Shown here piece by piece: positions 10,561 to 25,412 of a stretch of DNA of 25,412 bases. Position numbers and translations under genes: made by a program. Origin of the DNA: a virus. Taxonomy: Duplodnaviria; Caudoviricetes. The stretch's first letter is position 1. Each line of letters begins with the position of its first letter. The stretch is taken from positions 1 to 25,412 of the IMG/VR virus record IMGVR_UViG_3300017722_004908. The stretch is one strand, 5' to 3'. The notes below the pieces were generated by a model. It searched no databases, had not been told where the DNA came from, and saw only the letters and a list, made by a program, of their open reading frames with translations.

Positions 10561-13500
10561 ATGAAAATTGCTCATTTTGCAGATGTCCATTTTAGAGGTC
10601 TTTCTCGTCATGAAGAGTACCGAAAGTCATTCATAGACGCATTTAGATCTCTTAGAGATGAGAAGCCCGATGTGATCTATGTGGGTGGCGACATCGTTCA
10701 CTCAAAGACACAAGGAATCACACCTGAGCTTATTGATATTTTGACGTGGTGGTTCACAGAGCTCGCTACGATCGCGCCTGTAGAAGTCATCCTAGGGAAT
10801 CATGACGGATTGATCCTCAATAAGGATCGACAGGATGCGATAACACCCATCATCACAGCACTTGACAATAACAGAATACGCCTATACAAGGCATCAGGAA
10901 CATACAATAGTCCTGATGATCGATTTGCCTGGTGCGTTTTTTCGCCTTTTGATGTCGAAGGCTGGAAAAATGTCATTCCGGTAGATGGAAAGATAAATAT
11001 CGCGTTTTATCATGGTGCTGTCAAGGGTGCTAAATCAGACTCAGGCATCGAGCTTGATGGTGAAATCAATCTCGACCTGTTTGAAAAATTTGATTTTGCG
11101 CTATTAGGTGATATCCACAAGCGTCAATTTCTGAATGATGCAGGAACAGTGGCCTATTGCGGGTCAACAATACAACAAAACTACGGTGAAGACTTAGACA
11201 AGGGATACCTGATTTGGGATATCACGAGTCACAATAAGTTCACAACTAAATTTGTCAGAGTCGCTAATGATTCGCCATTCATTACAATTGAATGGCAAGA
11301 CGGATTGAAGCAAACTCTAACAAAGCTCCAGAGCGCGTCAAATCTTGCGAAAATCAGGTACAATGTACCTAACACACTGTCTGATGTAGAAATTAAGTCA
11401 CTTCACGAGCAGACACGCAATGCAGGTAACTTCGCTGAGATTCTCGTCAAGGTCAATGATGACAATTCTCTGAAAAATGCATCTGAACAGACACAGCTTA
11501 AATCTGAGAATCTTAGAGACAAGTCGATCTTAAGAAATGTAATTGATGATTATCTTTCAACAAAAAAGGTCGATCTTGCAAAGAGGCAGTTGTCACTAGA
11601 AAATTTTGAAAGATATTACGACAGCGTGTTGATCGATGATGAGGTTACCAGAAATATTGTCTGGAGTCTCAAGACACTTGAATTTGATAACATGTTTTCA
11701 TATGGGTCGAAAAATTTCATCGATTTCGATAAGCTATCTGGTATCACTGGCATCTTTGGCAAGAATCGATCGGGAAAGTCGTCAATAATCGGCACGATCG
11801 CATACGCTCTATTCAATACGACTGATAGAGGCACGATGAAGAATCTTCATCTAATAAATTCAGATGAAGACATGTGTCGTGCAAAGATCACAATGTCAGT
11901 TGCAGAAGAAGAGTATGAAATTGAGAGAGAATCGAACAAGGTCTATTCCAAGAAGTCAGATACTTCTGCTTCAACTAAGCTCTCACTTAAAAAGAAGAGC
12001 ACGGGTGATGTATTAAAGGACCTCAATGATGAGCAAAGACGCGAAACAGAAAAAATTGTTAGAAAGTTAATAGGAACATCTGACGACTTTTTCTACACGT
12101 GCCTTGCACCTCAAGGCCAGATGAACATGTTCATCAATGAAAAATCGACCAGCAGAAAGCAAATTCTTAGTCGCTTTCTTGATCTCGACATATTTGATGT
12201 CTATCATGACAAAGTTAAGCAAGATCTAGCACCGATCAAGGCAAGTCTCAAGAATTCTGCATCTATTGATGTCTTAACCAAGACCAAAGAAGATCTCATA
12301 ACACAAAAGGAAACGCTCCAAAAGGAGCTTGACGAGTCATCTCAAAAGCTTTCGTCAAAACGAGATCTTCTTGAATCTCTCAAGAAGCCAGATAATGTTG
12401 AGATCATTTCTGATGCAGATGTTGAGAATGCTGGGCTGAGAGTGAAACGCATCGAAGGCGAGATCGCTGATATTGAGAATAAATTGACATCGCTCAAGGT
12501 TGAGATCAAAGATCTCACAGACAAAAGCGAGAAGATCAAGTCAGCAATGTCCGTGATCAGCATTGACGATTTAAAGAAGCAAGAGTCTGATATCAAAGAT
12601 CTTGAGATGAAGTATGCAATCAATCTCAAGGATCACGAATCCAAGGAGCAAGAAGTTGCTCGTCTTGTGAAGAGGTCTAAGATTCTTGATGAAATTCCTT
12701 GCGGTGATAGTTTCAAAACATGCATCTTTATTAAGGATGCACATGAAAGTAAGACACTAATAAAGTCCCAGGAAGATGCTAGAGATGCGATTCAAAGGAC
12801 GCTAGAGATCTTGAAGGACAGGCTCAGTGAGCTTAACTCTGCTGACATAAAGTCCAAGATTGAAAAAGTTTCAAAGCTAAGCGAACTTAAAAATGATATC
12901 TCGCAGCAAATAGTCAAGCTAGAATCTAGTATAACAATCTACGATGAGAGGCTTTCTAATAAGCAGAGCGCTCATACAATAGATCTAGATAAATTGAAAT
13001 CAATCAAGGAAAAGAAAGCAAATCAAGAAGATTCTGATGTGGAGAAGATCCATCAAGAATACCTCACGATTCGCCAGGAGATTTCGAATCTCGAGAAGAA
13101 CAATCTTTCAATTTCTACCAATATCGGTAGGTGCGATGAAAAGATTCTAAACACTACAAGGCAGATTACTGAGCTTCTTGATGCGATCAAGCGACAAGAA
13201 ACGCTCACGATTCTTGAGAATGCCTTCTCTAAGAAAGGAATTCCACAAAGCATAATTTCTAAGAATCTACCTCTCATCAATTGTGAAGTATCCAAGATTC
13301 TGGATGGAATTTCTGGTTTCACAGTCGAAATAGAGTGTGATGACTCTAATAATATCGAGATCTACCTCAACTACGGTGACAGGAGAAGAATCATCGAGTT
13401 AGGATCTGGAATGGAAAAGATGATAGCATCGATTGCAATTAGAGTTGCCCTAACGAACATTTCATCACTTCCAAAATCAGATATGCTCATTATTGATGAA

Positions 13501-13677
13501 GGCTTCGGGGCGCTAGATGAGAACAACTTAGAGGCATGCTCACGTTTACTTCAGAATCTGAAGAGTTATTTTAAGAAAATTGTAATAATCTCCCATGTCG
13601 ATGCAATAAAGGACGTTGTTGATAACATGTTGAGCGTTGAATCGCACAACAATAGATCGAAAGTTATCCATGTCTAG
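10561..13677 (+). CDS. Fused Mre11/SbcD phosphoesterase - Rad50/SbcC ATPase recombination nuclease (T4 gp47-gp46-like)
   Basis: 1038 aa. Phosphoesterase motifs: ADVH, GGD, GNHD, YHG, GDIH. ATPase features: Walker A GKNRSGKSS, Q-loop APQG, long coiled coil, Walker B LIIDEG, H-loop IISH. Confidence 0.92.
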   Translation: MKIAHFADVHFRGLSRHEEYRKSFIDAFRSLRDEKPDVIYVGGDIVHSKTQGITPELIDILTWWFTELATIAPVEVILGNHDGLILNKDRQDAITPIITALDNNRIRLYKASGTYNSPDDRFAWCVFSPFDVEGWKNVIPVDGKINIAFYHGAVKGAKSDSGIELDGEINLDLFEKFDFALLGDIHKRQFLNDAGTVAYCGSTIQQNYGEDLDKGYLIWDITSHNKFTTKFVRVANDSPFITIEWQDGLKQTLTKLQSASNLAKIRYNVPNTLSDVEIKSLHEQTRNAGNFAEILVKVNDDNSLKNASEQTQLKSENLRDKSILRNVIDDYLSTKKVDLAKRQLSLENFERYYDSVLIDDEVTRNIVWSLKTLEFDNMFSYGSKNFIDFDKLSGITGIFGKNRSGKSSIIGTIAYALFNTTDRGTMKNLHLINSDEDMCRAKITMSVAEEEYEIERESNKVYSKKSDTSASTKLSLKKKSTGDVLKDLNDEQRRETEKIVRKLIGTSDDFFYTCLAPQGQMNMFINEKSTSRKQILSRFLDLDIFDVYHDKVKQDLAPIKASLKNSASIDVLTKTKEDLITQKETLQKELDESSQKLSSKRDLLESLKKPDNVEIISDADVENAGLRVKRIEGEIADIENKLTSLKVEIKDLTDKSEKIKSAMSVISIDDLKKQESDIKDLEMKYAINLKDHESKEQEVARLVKRSKILDEIPCGDSFKTCIFIKDAHESKTLIKSQEDARDAIQRTLEILKDRLSELNSADIKSKIEKVSKLSELKNDISQQIVKLESSITIYDERLSNKQSAHTIDLDKLKSIKEKKANQEDSDVEKIHQEYLTIRQEISNLEKNNLSISTNIGRCDEKILNTTRQITELLDAIKRQETLTILENAFSKKGIPQSIISKNLPLINCEVSKILDGISGFTVEIECDDSNNIEIYLNYGDRRRIIELGSGMEKMIASIAIRVALTNISSLPKSDMLIIDEGFGALDENNLEACSRLLQNLKSYFKKIVIISHVDAIKDVVDNMLSVESHNNRSKVIHV

Positions 13678-22668: not shown

Positions 22669-24600
22669 ATGTCAAGATCATTCTCTCTCAATACGCTCAC
22701 CGAGGGAATCACCGAGCGCAATAACAGCGCCGAGGGTCAGCGCCTCGTTGAGAAGTGGACACGCACAGGCCTCCTCCGCGGCCTCGACGGCGTCAAGCGC
22801 GATAACATGGCTCGCCTCCTCGAGAACCAGGCAGCCCAGGTCCTTCGTGAGTCTAACAGCCTCTCGACAGGCGGTGGCAACCTCGCATCCTCAGGCGACC
22901 TTCGTGGATTCACATCCATCGCCTTCCCCATTGTCCGTCGTGTCTTCGGCGGTCTCGTGGCAAACGAGCTCGTCTCCATCCAGCCCATGAGCCTTCCATC
23001 CGGTCTGCTCTTCTACCTGGATTACACCTACGGCACCAACGTCGGCGGTGACTCATCCATCACGGATGGTTCTTCAACACACGCACAGACCTACACAGCG
23101 GGTCAGTCAATCTACAACCTTCCTACCGGCAAGGGCGTCCAGTCAGGATCTCTTGCAGTTGGCGGTCAGTACGATCTGGTTGGAACATCCTACTCCAAGG
23201 TTCACTCCACCACAGCAATTACGCTTCTTGCTTCTGGCGCATTCCACACAGCAATTGGCGCTAATTCAAACACGATCGTTGCAGGTCAGGCCTGCTTTGC
23301 AACAGGCACAGACGGTCGCTTCCTCCAGTTCGACCCACAGGTCACGAACCTTATTGAGAACAACAGCGCAGGTGCAGGTGCAACCACAGGCGACGGTGCC
23401 TTCTCATTCCTGGTCGTGAGCCTCGGCTCAGGATTCACCAGCTTTGACACGACTCAGGTCAAGGACGTAACTCTCTATTCGGCAGCCGTTGGTAACACCG
23501 GCCTCGGAACAGTCGGTAACACCATACAGGGTGGCACAAACGTCCTTAACGTTCGTCGTCTCAGCCAGCTTGGAACATTTACAGGCGGTGTCTTCACACC
23601 CAATGCTCTTGCAACAACCAGCACTGCAAACGCCGCGCTTCTGCTCGTCGTCTCAGGTACGGTCTCAGCTGCAAGCTCTGTTCCTTCTGGCGCAACCAAG
23701 AACCTTACTGGTTCATTCGCAATAGCTGATACATTCTCAGCTGATGCAACTGGCGGCGACACTCTCGTGATTCCAAGCTTCGAGTCGAACTTCGGAACAA
23801 CGCCCTCACCACTCATCCCCGAGATCGACATCAAGATTGAGTCCATCGCGGTCACCGCGACGACCCGCAAGCTCCGCGCTCGTTGGTCGCCAGAACTCGC
23901 TCAGGACCTCAATGCATACCACTCGCTGGATGCCGAGGTTGAGCTCACACAGATCCTCTCTGAGCAGATCGCTCTCGAGCTCGATCGTGAGATCCTCAAC
24001 GACCTCCTCACCCAGGCAAATGGCGCTAACTACTTCTGGTCACGTTCACCAGGCAAGTTCGTCAACAAGACCAACGGTGCTGAGATCACTCGTGCATCCA
24101 CACTCAACCCCGGCCCGAACTTCACTGGTACGGTCCGCGAGTGGTACGAGACCCTCATCGAGACCGTGATCGACGTGGCTAACGAGATCCACCGCAAGAC
24201 CCTTCGTGGTTCGGCTAACTTCATCGTGGTTTCACCCGATGTCGCCACCGTCCTCGAGGCTTCGGTGCTCTACAAGCCCAACTACAGCCTCGATGGTCAG
24301 GGTCAGGTTGGATCCTCCTTCTCGATCGGTGCTTCACCCATCGGTAGCCTCTCCAACCGCTTCACCGTCTACAAGGATCCTTACTTCCCCCGTAACAAGA
24401 TCCTCGTCGGCTACAAGGGCGGCAGCTACCTCGAGACAGGTTATGTCTACGCTCCTTACGTTCCACTCATCGTGACTCCAACCATCTTCGCTCCCGAAGA
24501 CTTCACCCCACGTAAGGGCGTGATGACCCGCTACGGGAAGAAAATGGTGCGCAGCGACTTTTATGGCACTGTCACGTGTCTCGACATGAATATTATATAG
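22669..24600 (+). CDS. gp23: Major capsid protein (T4 gp23-like)
   Basis: 643 aa from ATG 22669 with SD GGAG. gp23-type motifs: 'LVEKW', 'LLENQ', 'LVSIQPMSLPSGLLFYL', 'TRKLRARWSPELAQDLNAYH', 'YAPYVPL', 'GVMTRYG'. Strong codon bias. Confidence 0.96.
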   Translation: MSRSFSLNTLTEGITERNNSAEGQRLVEKWTRTGLLRGLDGVKRDNMARLLENQAAQVLRESNSLSTGGGNLASSGDLRGFTSIAFPIVRRVFGGLVANELVSIQPMSLPSGLLFYLDYTYGTNVGGDSSITDGSSTHAQTYTAGQSIYNLPTGKGVQSGSLAVGGQYDLVGTSYSKVHSTTAITLLASGAFHTAIGANSNTIVAGQACFATGTDGRFLQFDPQVTNLIENNSAGAGATTGDGAFSFLVVSLGSGFTSFDTTQVKDVTLYSAAVGNTGLGTVGNTIQGGTNVLNVRRLSQLGTFTGGVFTPNALATTSTANAALLLVVSGTVSAASSVPSGATKNLTGSFAIADTFSADATGGDTLVIPSFESNFGTTPSPLIPEIDIKIESIAVTATTRKLRARWSPELAQDLNAYHSLDAEVELTQILSEQIALELDREILNDLLTQANGANYFWSRSPGKFVNKTNGAEITRASTLNPGPNFTGTVREWYETLIETVIDVANEIHRKTLRGSANFIVVSPDVATVLEASVLYKPNYSLDGQGQVGSSFSIGASPIGSLSNRFTVYKDPYFPRNKILVGYKGGSYLETGYVYAPYVPLIVTPTIFAPEDFTPRKGVMTRYGKKMVRSDFYGTVTCLDMNII

Positions 24601-24640
24601 TTGAATGTAATCTAATCTAATCAATTAGATCAACTATATA
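24594..24640. repeat. AT-rich inverted repeat (long hairpin) covering the MCP stop codon
   Basis: TATATAGTTGA (24594-24604) is the exact reverse complement of TCAACTATATA (24630-24640). There is an inner TCTAAT/ATTAGA pair and (TAATC)x3 at 24608-24622. Confidence 0.8.
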
Positions 24641-24676
24641 GGTGGCGCCCCCTAAAAAGGGCGCCACTTTTGTTTT
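24641..24676 (+). terminator. Rho-independent terminator after the MCP
   Basis: Stem GTGGCGCCC (24642-24650) / GGGCGCCAC (24659-24667), 8-nt loop, then TTTTGTTTT. Confidence 0.9.
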
Positions 24677-24691
24677 GTGAGCCATATAACG

Positions 24692-24713
24692 TTCATATTG
24701 ATATGAATATAAT
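24692..24713 (+). promoter_or_regulatory. Palindrome (putative operator) abutting a consensus -10 box
   Basis: TTCATAT-tg-ATATGAA (24692-24707) is immediately followed by TATAAT (24708-24713), which ends 6 nt before ATG 24720. Confidence 0.5.
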
Positions 24714-24719
24714 ATGTGT

Positions 24720-25412
24720 ATGAAGACCTGCAAAATCTGCGACAAGACGTTCACTCGCCTGGCATCTCACGTATCCTCTGCACACGAGATCACATATGAG
24801 TCATACCTTCTCAAGCATGACTTCGGTGGAGTCAATCCAAAGTGTGAATGCGGTTGCGGATTAGATGCGCCCTTTTCAAAATCTCAAGGCATGAGATTTC
24901 TTCGATACATCCATGGACACTCAGCAAGAATTGAAGGTCGCCTAACAGCAGAATCAAAAGCAAAAATTGGGGAGAAGAACAGAGAAAACTTAATTCGCTA
25001 TAGTAGCAAGAATCCAGATAAAACTAAAGCTCAAGCGGAGTTAATGAGGAAACATATCACTCCTGAAATCCGTAAGCGCTCAGCTAAAACAAATGCTGAA
25101 AATTGGCAAAAACCAGAATCATCAGAGAAGAGAAAGCGGCAGACAGAGCACGCCATCAACCTCCTGGAGCAGGGGAAGATCGGGCCGCAGGCACCCTACA
25201 GGACCGAGTGGAAGCTCAACCCATTCACTGGCCAGGAGGAATACATGCACTCATCCTGGGAGACTCGATTCCTCGATGAGTGCATCGAGCGGAGCATTCC
25301 GGTCACCAAGCAGCACGGCATCCGCATCCCATACGTGGACCCGAACGGCATCGAGCGGGTCTACATCCCAGATTTTCTGACGCTTGACAGAAAGACACTG
25401 TACGAGGTGAAA
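24720..25412 (+). CDS. Putative free-standing homing endonuclease: Zn-finger modules + PD-(D/E)xK (TnsA-like) nuclease, 3'-truncated
   Basis: Translated by hand (absent from the ORF track because there is no stop in the window): MKTCKICDKTFTRLASHVSSAH (C2H2), 'PKCECGCG...FLRYIHGH', basic helical linker, then 'MHSSWETRF...IRIPYVDPNGIERVYIPDFLTLDRKTLYEVK'. An alternative ATG is at 24714. Confidence 0.8.
   Translation, partial: MKTCKICDKTFTRLASHVSSAHEITYESYLLKHDFGGVNPKCECGCGLDAPFSKSQGMRFLRYIHGHSARIEGRLTAESKAKIGEKNRENLIRYSSKNPDKTKAQAELMRKHITPEIRKRSAKTNAENWQKPESSEKRKRQTEHAINLLEQGKIGPQAPYRTEWKLNPFTGQEEYMHSSWETRFLDECIERSIPVTKQHGIRIPYVDPNGIERVYIPDFLTLDRKTLYEVK

Follow-up and report, generated by a model that had tools for sequence, protein, structure and literature searches.

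A TnsA-fold nuclease gene and a silently diverged capsid-gene end appear to travel together in uncultured T4-like giant phages

The capsid locus and its codon-shifted end

The 25,412-nt stretch of Caudoviricetes DNA analysed here (IMG/VR record IMGVR_UViG_3300017722_004908; hereafter the window) ends with a major capsid protein (MCP) gene, a terminator-like stem and an open reading frame (ORF) for a nuclease. Comparison with related loci revealed a nuclease gene that is present behind some MCP genes and absent behind others, and whose presence goes with silent divergence of the last MCP codons. Pfam and PHROG matches identified T4-like primase, RuvC, SbcC-like, terminase, portal, protease and Gp23 genes in the window. 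Contigs with related MCPs reach 250-320 kb, the sequencing runs containing the window are freshwater, and among cultured phages neither a close MCP (best match 52%) nor a close nuclease was found; the group consists of uncultured T4-like giant phages. The coding features of the locus are:

22669..24600, plus strand: MCP gene, T4 Gp23 family, 643 amino acids (aa), host gene of the cassette (Pfam PF07068, E 6e-78; phrog_138).
24535..24597, plus strand: silently diverged final 21 MCP codons (GKKMVRSDFYGTVTCLDMNII), presumably a co-converted, cut-resistant allele (codon score; comparison with relatives).
24720..25170, plus strand: N-terminal part of the nuclease, with C2H2 finger, CxCGCG module and long helices; predicted DNA-binding arm; GC content at third codon positions (GC3) 0.40 (invariant C4, C7, H17, H22, C42 and C46; weak Ros/C2H2 matches; structure model).
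25171..25412, plus strand: PD-(D/E)xK domain of TnsA_N fold, cut by the contig end; GC3 0.80 (E181, D218, E229 and K231, P0003 numbering).

The MCP ORF is uninterrupted, and the nuclease gene lies outside introns and inteins. The MCP gene is strongly codon-biased in a genome whose GC3 elsewhere is 0.30-0.43. A preliminary description of the window, made from its letters alone, had pointed to this bias, and the counts for the conserved C-terminal core agree: TTC 9/TTT 0, AAG 10/AAA 0, AAC 11/AAT 2, TAC 12/TAT 1 and ATC 16/ATT 1/ATA 0. It had also placed an abrupt shift at 24535, from where GGG, AAA, TTT, TAT, AAT, ATT and ATA are present; the "22" codons it counted are 21 sense codons plus TAG. 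When a codon-adaptation score was run along the gene, this tail was indeed the lowest window, at -1.11 against about -0.27 for the body. For a tail stretch picked after the fact, scores this low arose in 0/200,000 simulations based on whole-gene codon use and in 1/200,000 based on core use. The final 21 codons of 12 other window genes scored -0.27 to -0.74; these genes and nuclease-free MCP genes are less shifted, which speaks against a general 3'-end codon decay. Relative to its closest nuclease-free relatives, L002 and L163, the window differs at 12/63 nt in the tail, all silent, and at 4/60 nt in the 60 nt before 24535, so the boundary falls where the preliminary description had put it. Within the MCP gene, an insertion of ~250 aa rich in Gly/Thr/Ala/Ser (window about 23060-23820) has a GC3 of 0.52 and a weaker bias than the conserved parts.

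A zinc-finger arm joined to a TnsA-like nuclease domain

The nuclease ORF, with its start codon at 24714 or 24720, is truncated by the contig end; in the near-identical contig L280 it encodes a complete 262-aa protein and is followed by unrelated genes. The C2H2, CxCGCG, S.WE..F and Y.PDF...EVK motifs described earlier are all present, and the terminator stem that precedes the ORF lies at 24640-24669. We collected 99 nuclease homologues; of the 74 that were aligned, all retain the zinc ligands as well as E181, D218, E229 and K231. An AlphaFold model (predicted local distance difference test 88, predicted template modelling score 0.56) consists of small N-terminal modules, four long helices and an alpha/beta domain. 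Foldseek against the PDB placed Tn7 TnsA first (E 6e-3, probability 1.0), with no match at E <= 0.001, and BFVD yielded phage TnsA_N and endonuclease proteins. Together with the catalytic residues, this upholds the earlier assignment to TnsA-like PD-(D/E)xK enzymes. The PF08722 match is weak for the window ORF and above cut-off in relatives. A PDB sequence search returned only weak zinc-finger and T7 endonuclease I matches, and an NCBIfam search nothing above cut-off. No GIY-YIG or HNH domain was matched in P0003 by Pfam or PHROG, and the same searches found neither a TnsA C-terminal domain nor neighbouring tnsB or tnsC.

GC3 is 0.40 in the arm and 0.80 in the nuclease domain, and a tree of the nuclease domain (rough bootstrap) intermingles the N-terminal types; the arms are therefore being swapped between nuclease domains. 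One homologue, P0085, combines a window-type arm with a more gp4-like nuclease domain and ends in CLDMNII, the C-terminus of the MCP, which suggests read-through into a displaced capsid end.

One locus with patchy occupancy

Among viral homologues, 56/60 lie directly behind an MCP gene. The other four are at contig edges: two start at base 2 and two begin with terminator-like DNA, one of which (L147) is identical there to the post-MCP DNA of L069. Of 77 metagenome homologues, 56 lie behind an MCP gene (51 with the tail pattern, 3 with a variant MCP end and 2 with an orphan zinc-finger ORF between), 19 have <250 nt upstream, and 2 are on short contigs with other DNA upstream. L337, the one checked of the two loci with an orphan ORF, has a zinc-finger/CxCGCG/helical ORF without a nuclease domain between MCP and nuclease (L337:2481-2975), which could be a remnant or a repressor.

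We then classified 110 distinct MCP-anchored loci: 13 had the nuclease, 12 a Hef-like gene (see below), 6 a truncated zinc-finger start and 58 neither, and 21 were too short. Thus 58/89 readable loci are empty, and carriers make up about 15-20% of the group's capsid loci (13/89; up to 19 counting truncated cases). On a 102-row MCP tree, nuclease presence required 17 gains or losses, 12 of them forced by starred branches. Broken copies occur (L144, L147). In the complete genome G009 (100%) the nuclease is absent behind the MCP gene, with weak paralogues elsewhere; long empty contigs gave no nuclease match in 4/4, and among 4 more, weak paralogues in 1. The DNA downstream of the MCP gene is variable among empty loci. 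Four public runs contained freshwater phages with several nuclease variants; nuclease-free alleles were not resolved in the same population as carriers in these runs. RNA cover over the nuclease was absent in X7, which is uninformative.

A gp4-like head-completion nuclease would be expected as a conserved stand-alone protein of about 150 aa across the group. The window's nuclease type has 262 aa with an added arm and is patchy, and G007 carries it besides a separate 132-aa gp4-like gene. The preliminary description had named a syntenic core or gp4-like gene as what would speak against homing; the gains and losses, the empty G009 locus and the separate gene in G007 largely rule this out.

The tail shift follows the nuclease

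To compare tails between occupied and empty loci, 266 sequences were reduced to 212 with a complete MCP end and at least 200 codons, and to 140 after de-duplication; 21 short rows and 6 with only the zinc finger were left out of the main test. The median tail score was -0.86 with the nuclease (n=47) and -0.29 without (n=55), and 41/47 vs 6/55 tails scored below -0.55 (p 5e-15). Nuclease-free relatives thus mostly do not share the tail shift, the other finding named beforehand as contrary to homing. The difference persisted in a GC3-matched comparison (p 3e-13), whereas the 30 codons upstream of the tail were alike in carriers and empty loci (p 0.49). Across independent pairs the shift went with the nuclease in 11.1/12 and in the opposite direction in 0.1 (median p 0.001). 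At codon 10 of the tail, G10=GGG occurred in 18/47 carriers and in 0/55 empty loci. L062, one of the loci without the nuclease, has the appearance of a former carrier.

Joint transfer of the tail, intergenic DNA and nuclease gene

The clearest case of transfer involves three loci. L097 matches the nuclease-free L025 at 434/435 nt of the MCP body, up to tail codon 4, and at only 37/48 nt of the tail. Against L096, by contrast, L097 matches at 378/435 nt of the body (87%), 47/48 nt of the tail, 122/126 nt of the intergenic region and 664/690 nt of the nuclease gene. L025-like sequence resumes 45 nt past the nuclease stop. These alignments show that tail, intergenic DNA and nuclease gene were transferred together, as one cassette of roughly 1 kb; since L097 switches at the tail and rejoins L025 45 nt after the nuclease, the converted conserved DNA is confined to the tail. 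Such a footprint is expected of homing, and co-inheritance of the tail, proposed in the preliminary description, is here seen directly. In other close pairs the left crossover lies between codons -1 and 10.

In L089 the nuclease gene is flanked by 88-nt direct repeats (MCP end, hairpin and terminator). The second copy begins 13 nt after the nuclease stop, and this displaced copy ends in ATC ATC, the nuclease-free type. A nuclease-free locus, L061, has its own MCP end and 3' untranslated region repeated behind the next gene, about 814 nt past the MCP stop.

Motif copies between the capsid and nuclease genes

The region between the two coding sequences holds further features:

24584..24598, plus strand: MCP-end motif, codons D-M-N-I-I; putative binding site of the window's nuclease type (repeats D1, I1).
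24594..24640, plus strand: hairpin including the last MCP codon and the stop (I5, 11-nt perfect arms; the region folds at z -5.4).
24601..24615, plus strand: decayed tandem copy of the MCP end right after the stop, L-N-V-I-stop (sequence; window p 0.06).
24640..24669, plus strand: intrinsic terminator-like stem and U tract.
24684..24715, no strand assigned: inverted pair of MCP-end-like motifs (24684-24698 minus, 24701-24715 plus) over a TATAAT box at 24708-24713; putative promoter/operator (I4).

Loci of the same type as the window have significant M-N-I-I-stop copies just past the stop in 7/9 (new loci, 8/8; empty, 3/54) and before the nuclease start in 9/9 (new loci, 6/8; 15/17 in total; empty, 1/54). 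L062 was excluded from the background for its carrier-type end. In L291 an 18-nt copy of D-M-N-I-I-stop precedes the nuclease start. NUMOD3 types have an inverted K-M-V-R motif past the stop in 7/18 loci and in 5/14 new ones. A sigma-70 promoter scan did not list the putative nuclease promoter.

Two minor observations belong to this region. A tandem second copy of the final 5-6 MCP codons (DMNVI-stop or DMNII-stop) lies past the stop in L041, L062, L063, L065, L106, L111 and L141, in L062 without a nuclease. Near-identical phages are polymorphic here: the window (24699-24700) and L280 differ by a 1-nt indel in the middle of the putative operator/promoter spacer.

Silent marks specific to arm types and to a Hef-like gene

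Some tail codons differ with the type of arm. V12=GTG was found in 17/18 NUMOD3-type loci, compared with 2/21 loci of the other two types and 3/54 empty loci. For replication we used a new metagenome set, from which loci at least 95% identical to earlier ones were removed (27/51 kept); there, V12=GTG was present in 12/14 NUMOD3-type loci and 1/11 others. A separate group of 7 loci was set aside. In the first set an I20 mark (20/22 vs 9/18) and a TAC-GG mark at Y9-G10 (18/22 vs 8/18) also distinguished types. A common cleavage motif near codons 9-12, reached from either side, fitted loosely and replicated poorly, and is not claimed.

A second gene also occupies this position. The Hef-like gene (470 aa, phrog_3339), with C2H2, NUMOD3, Vsr-like and GNAT/Mom-like parts, stands behind the MCP gene alone or after the TnsA-fold gene (L087:4882-6294; also L016, L017, L024, L056 and L070). 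Loci with it have a silent GAT at the PEDF sequence, 12 codons upstream of the tail, in 19/20 cases vs 8/54 empty loci; with the TnsA-fold nuclease only, the count is 9/29. The window has GAC there (24499-24501), and L280 is without a Hef-like gene.

Proposed mechanism and alternatives

These sequence comparisons show occupancy of one locus, repeated gain and loss, and co-conversion of the tail with the nuclease, and from them we infer cleavage of the MCP end and immunity conferred by the odd codons. The free-standing nuclease gene is mobile and passes between related phages with the last 10-21 MCP codons; we consider it likely that intronless homing drives this spread, with the cut predicted to fall in those codons. 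The comparisons support the homing interpretation of the preliminary description. During co-infection, the N-terminal zinc-finger/helical arm would bind the capsid-end motif, D-M-N-I-I-stop for the window's type and K-M-V-R for NUMOD3-containing types. The TnsA-like domain would then introduce a nick or break close by in the well-adapted allele of the rival; with the carrier as repair template, the rival would acquire both the silently altered tail and the nuclease gene. Protection from self-cutting would come from a few of the silent changes, others probably being passengers from repeated sweeps and earlier nuclease variants. The promoter copies match the window's own MCP end, so the site lost through immunity is more likely the one for cleavage than the one for binding, which parallels a proposal for MobE (PMC2790892) and the case of the I-TevI operator (PMC2988022). 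The motif copies over its own promoter may further make the nuclease an autorepressor, as I-TevI is; we rate this, the least certain step, slightly below an even chance.

Several observations weigh against this account. Six of the 47 carriers have a near-normal tail and 6/55 empty loci a shifted one, and no single universal immunity mutation was found when sought across carriers. L289, which is of the window's type, retains an intact ATG AAC ATC ATC end. The tail codons had been called off-bias; this is correct for the MCP gene, but most of them are background codons of the AT-rich genome, and many, pointing that way, are therefore probably passengers. The second set barely separates types by I20 (8/11 vs 8/14) or TAC-GG (7/11 vs 7/14), and linkage alone can yield type-specific marks where the tail adjoins the N-terminal coding DNA. 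Promoter copies are weak in other types (3/13 and 3/18 in the first set, 0/3 and 1/14 in the second), the promoter copy overlaps the TATAAT box so that the -10 box supplies letters, and the motif counts come from windows picked after scanning 24, in same-type loci that share ancestry. A displaced MCP end follows the nuclease in 2/71 loci vs 2/55 controls, or by position weight matrix in 3/68 vs 1/54.

The nuclease might instead be mobile with its cut site elsewhere (upstream in the MCP gene, in the intergenic region or in the next gene), the tail being a passenger or the product of AT-ward drift or repair mutation. The tail changes are scattered and differ among carriers, the background GC3 of 0.30-0.43 would favour such drift, and the free-standing nucleases of T4 act at distances of hundreds to thousands of bp (PMC2988022). 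We nevertheless regard a distant cut as improbable: in close pairs the crossovers map within the tail or to its beginning, hardly any conserved DNA besides the tail lies in the converted tract, the downstream DNA varies among empty loci, and the GGG and GTG marks, not being AT-ward, cannot derive from AT drift. It is very unlikely that overlapping RNA structure or regulatory signals, such as the stop-spanning hairpin or control of the downstream gene, shaped the tail. The last codon does pair into a stable hairpin and the motif recurs in the promoter region, but the hairpin covers only the final 1-2 codons, a similar one lies behind the MCP gene in the nuclease-free L025, and changes at codons 0-15 and the cassette transfer would be left unexplained.

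We give slightly less credence still to an active nuclease without homing drive, comparable to T4 SegD beside gene 23, with a cassette that spreads by ordinary recombination; repeated gains, tract-limited conversion and tail divergence in 11/12 independent pairs would then be unexpected. A 2018 report is said to have found that SegD cuts but does not home. The segD gene lies between genes 23 and 24, and its activity is listed as not determined (PMC2988022). Least probable of all is a conserved head-completion or housekeeping nuclease with an incidental tail shift: phrog_218, annotated as head closure, is related to the domain (weak matches in relatives), and BFVD head completion nucleases match at E about 1e-4, but most readable loci are empty, pseudogenes occur and the gp4-like gene of G007 stands alone.

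The homing account can, tentatively, be widened to both genes. The last ~35 MCP codons might be a shared battleground, in which swapped arms aim one TnsA-fold domain at different sub-sites and the Hef-like enzyme hits just upstream; each would leave a silent immunity mark, and arm motifs would be copied beside the stop as a decoy and over the promoter as an operator. If so, target specificity could be read from DNA, and the group would offer a natural library of modular, programmable PD-(D/E)xK nucleases.

Relation to known homing systems

The arrangement works like homing by T4 Seg/Mob enzymes and resembles the WHO elements of yeast, and the nuclease is a member of neither family. The WHO nuclease is intein/LAGLIDADG-like. 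As in T4 intronless homing (SegF/gene 56, SegG/gene 32, MobE/nrdB), an optional nuclease gene lies between conserved genes (PMC2988022, PMC2790892). T4 free-standing endonucleases also have co-conversion tracts, a terminator beside the gene and a modular binding and catalytic build, and their targets lie in adjoining essential genes, where carrier alleles are polymorphic (PMC2988022, PMC2790892); here the diverged tail is the predicted counterpart of such a target. Seg/Mob enzymes are GIY-YIG or HNH and cut at a distance, whereas the present enzyme has a TnsA_N PD-(D/E)xK fold and a predicted site no more than about 120-190 bp from the start codon, and its single locus is used by several N-terminal types that can be swapped. 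Free-standing nuclease genes adjoin the major capsid gene in T4 (segD; PMC2988022) and in LIMEstone1, where the Hef-like F-LimVII (ORF137) is beside gp23 (ORF138; PMC3296691). Unlike the present gene, segD is GIY-YIG, antisense and without a listed target, and the available text describes no recoded capsid end for either (PMC2988022, PMC3296691).

WHO elements at FBA1 pair a resistant 3' end of the target gene with a downstream zinc-finger nuclease, as is presumed here, and show 5' and 3' gene parts with discordant histories and displaced old ends (PMC7282813), for which L089 and the tandem relics are our counterparts. WHO, however, replaces about 400 nt and regularly leaves a downstream fragment (PMC7282813); here 10-21 codons are replaced and the fragment is rare (2/71). 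Target-like sequence over the nuclease's own promoter recalls I-TevI autorepression, which was shown for an intron-encoded GIY-YIG enzyme (PMC2988022), whereas here it is a sequence pattern at a free-standing gene. The catalytic fold and PD-(D/E)xK residues are shared with the N-terminal domain of Tn7 TnsA (PF08722; PDB 1t0f, 1f1z), T4 gp4-like nucleases and phrog_15427. In contrast to Tn7 TnsA, the protein lacks the TnsA C-terminal domain and has an added zinc-finger/helical arm, and the window holds no TnsB/C/D genes; nor is the capsid-end nuclease a gp4 orthologue.

A homing endonuclease is active in competition between jumbo phages (PMC12908238), and a term search of the available text of PMC10448857 returned neither "TnsA" nor "synonymous". 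We found no description of capsid-end TnsA-fold homing in the literature searched, which covered few subscription papers and no supplements. Nucleases beside gp23 are already known; new are the TnsA fold with a clean recombinant, the arm-specific silent marks and the candidate operator. If homing is confirmed, the TnsA_N/gp4-like fold would join the catalytic folds used for it, and even a strongly codon-optimised capsid gene would bear a silent-site cost from selfish nucleases. As about 15-20% of loci carry the nuclease, the 3' end of this capsid marker gene is recombinant. Matched alleles, presumably cuttable and resistant, exist with codon-level predictions (L025 vs L097; L002 or L163 vs the window), which opens immunity and autoregulation to in vitro tests that need no phage culture.

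Related nucleases at other loci

In the 318-kb contig of L109 (G006), the nuclease profile and phrog_218 each matched nine times, which points to many TnsA-fold paralogues at other loci. Distant relatives of the phrog_15427 type interrupt the terminase large-subunit gene in the cultured T4-like phages phiR1-RT and PD112, and in Thanatos-2 a match lies inside the first annotated terminase piece (L276:2893-3492, L277:734-1333 and L279:467-2212); the literature searched yielded nothing on such terminase-interrupting relatives. Elsewhere in the window, at 10561-13677, a metallophosphoesterase and an SbcC/Rad50-like ATPase (gp47/gp46-like) are fused in a single 1038-aa ORF.

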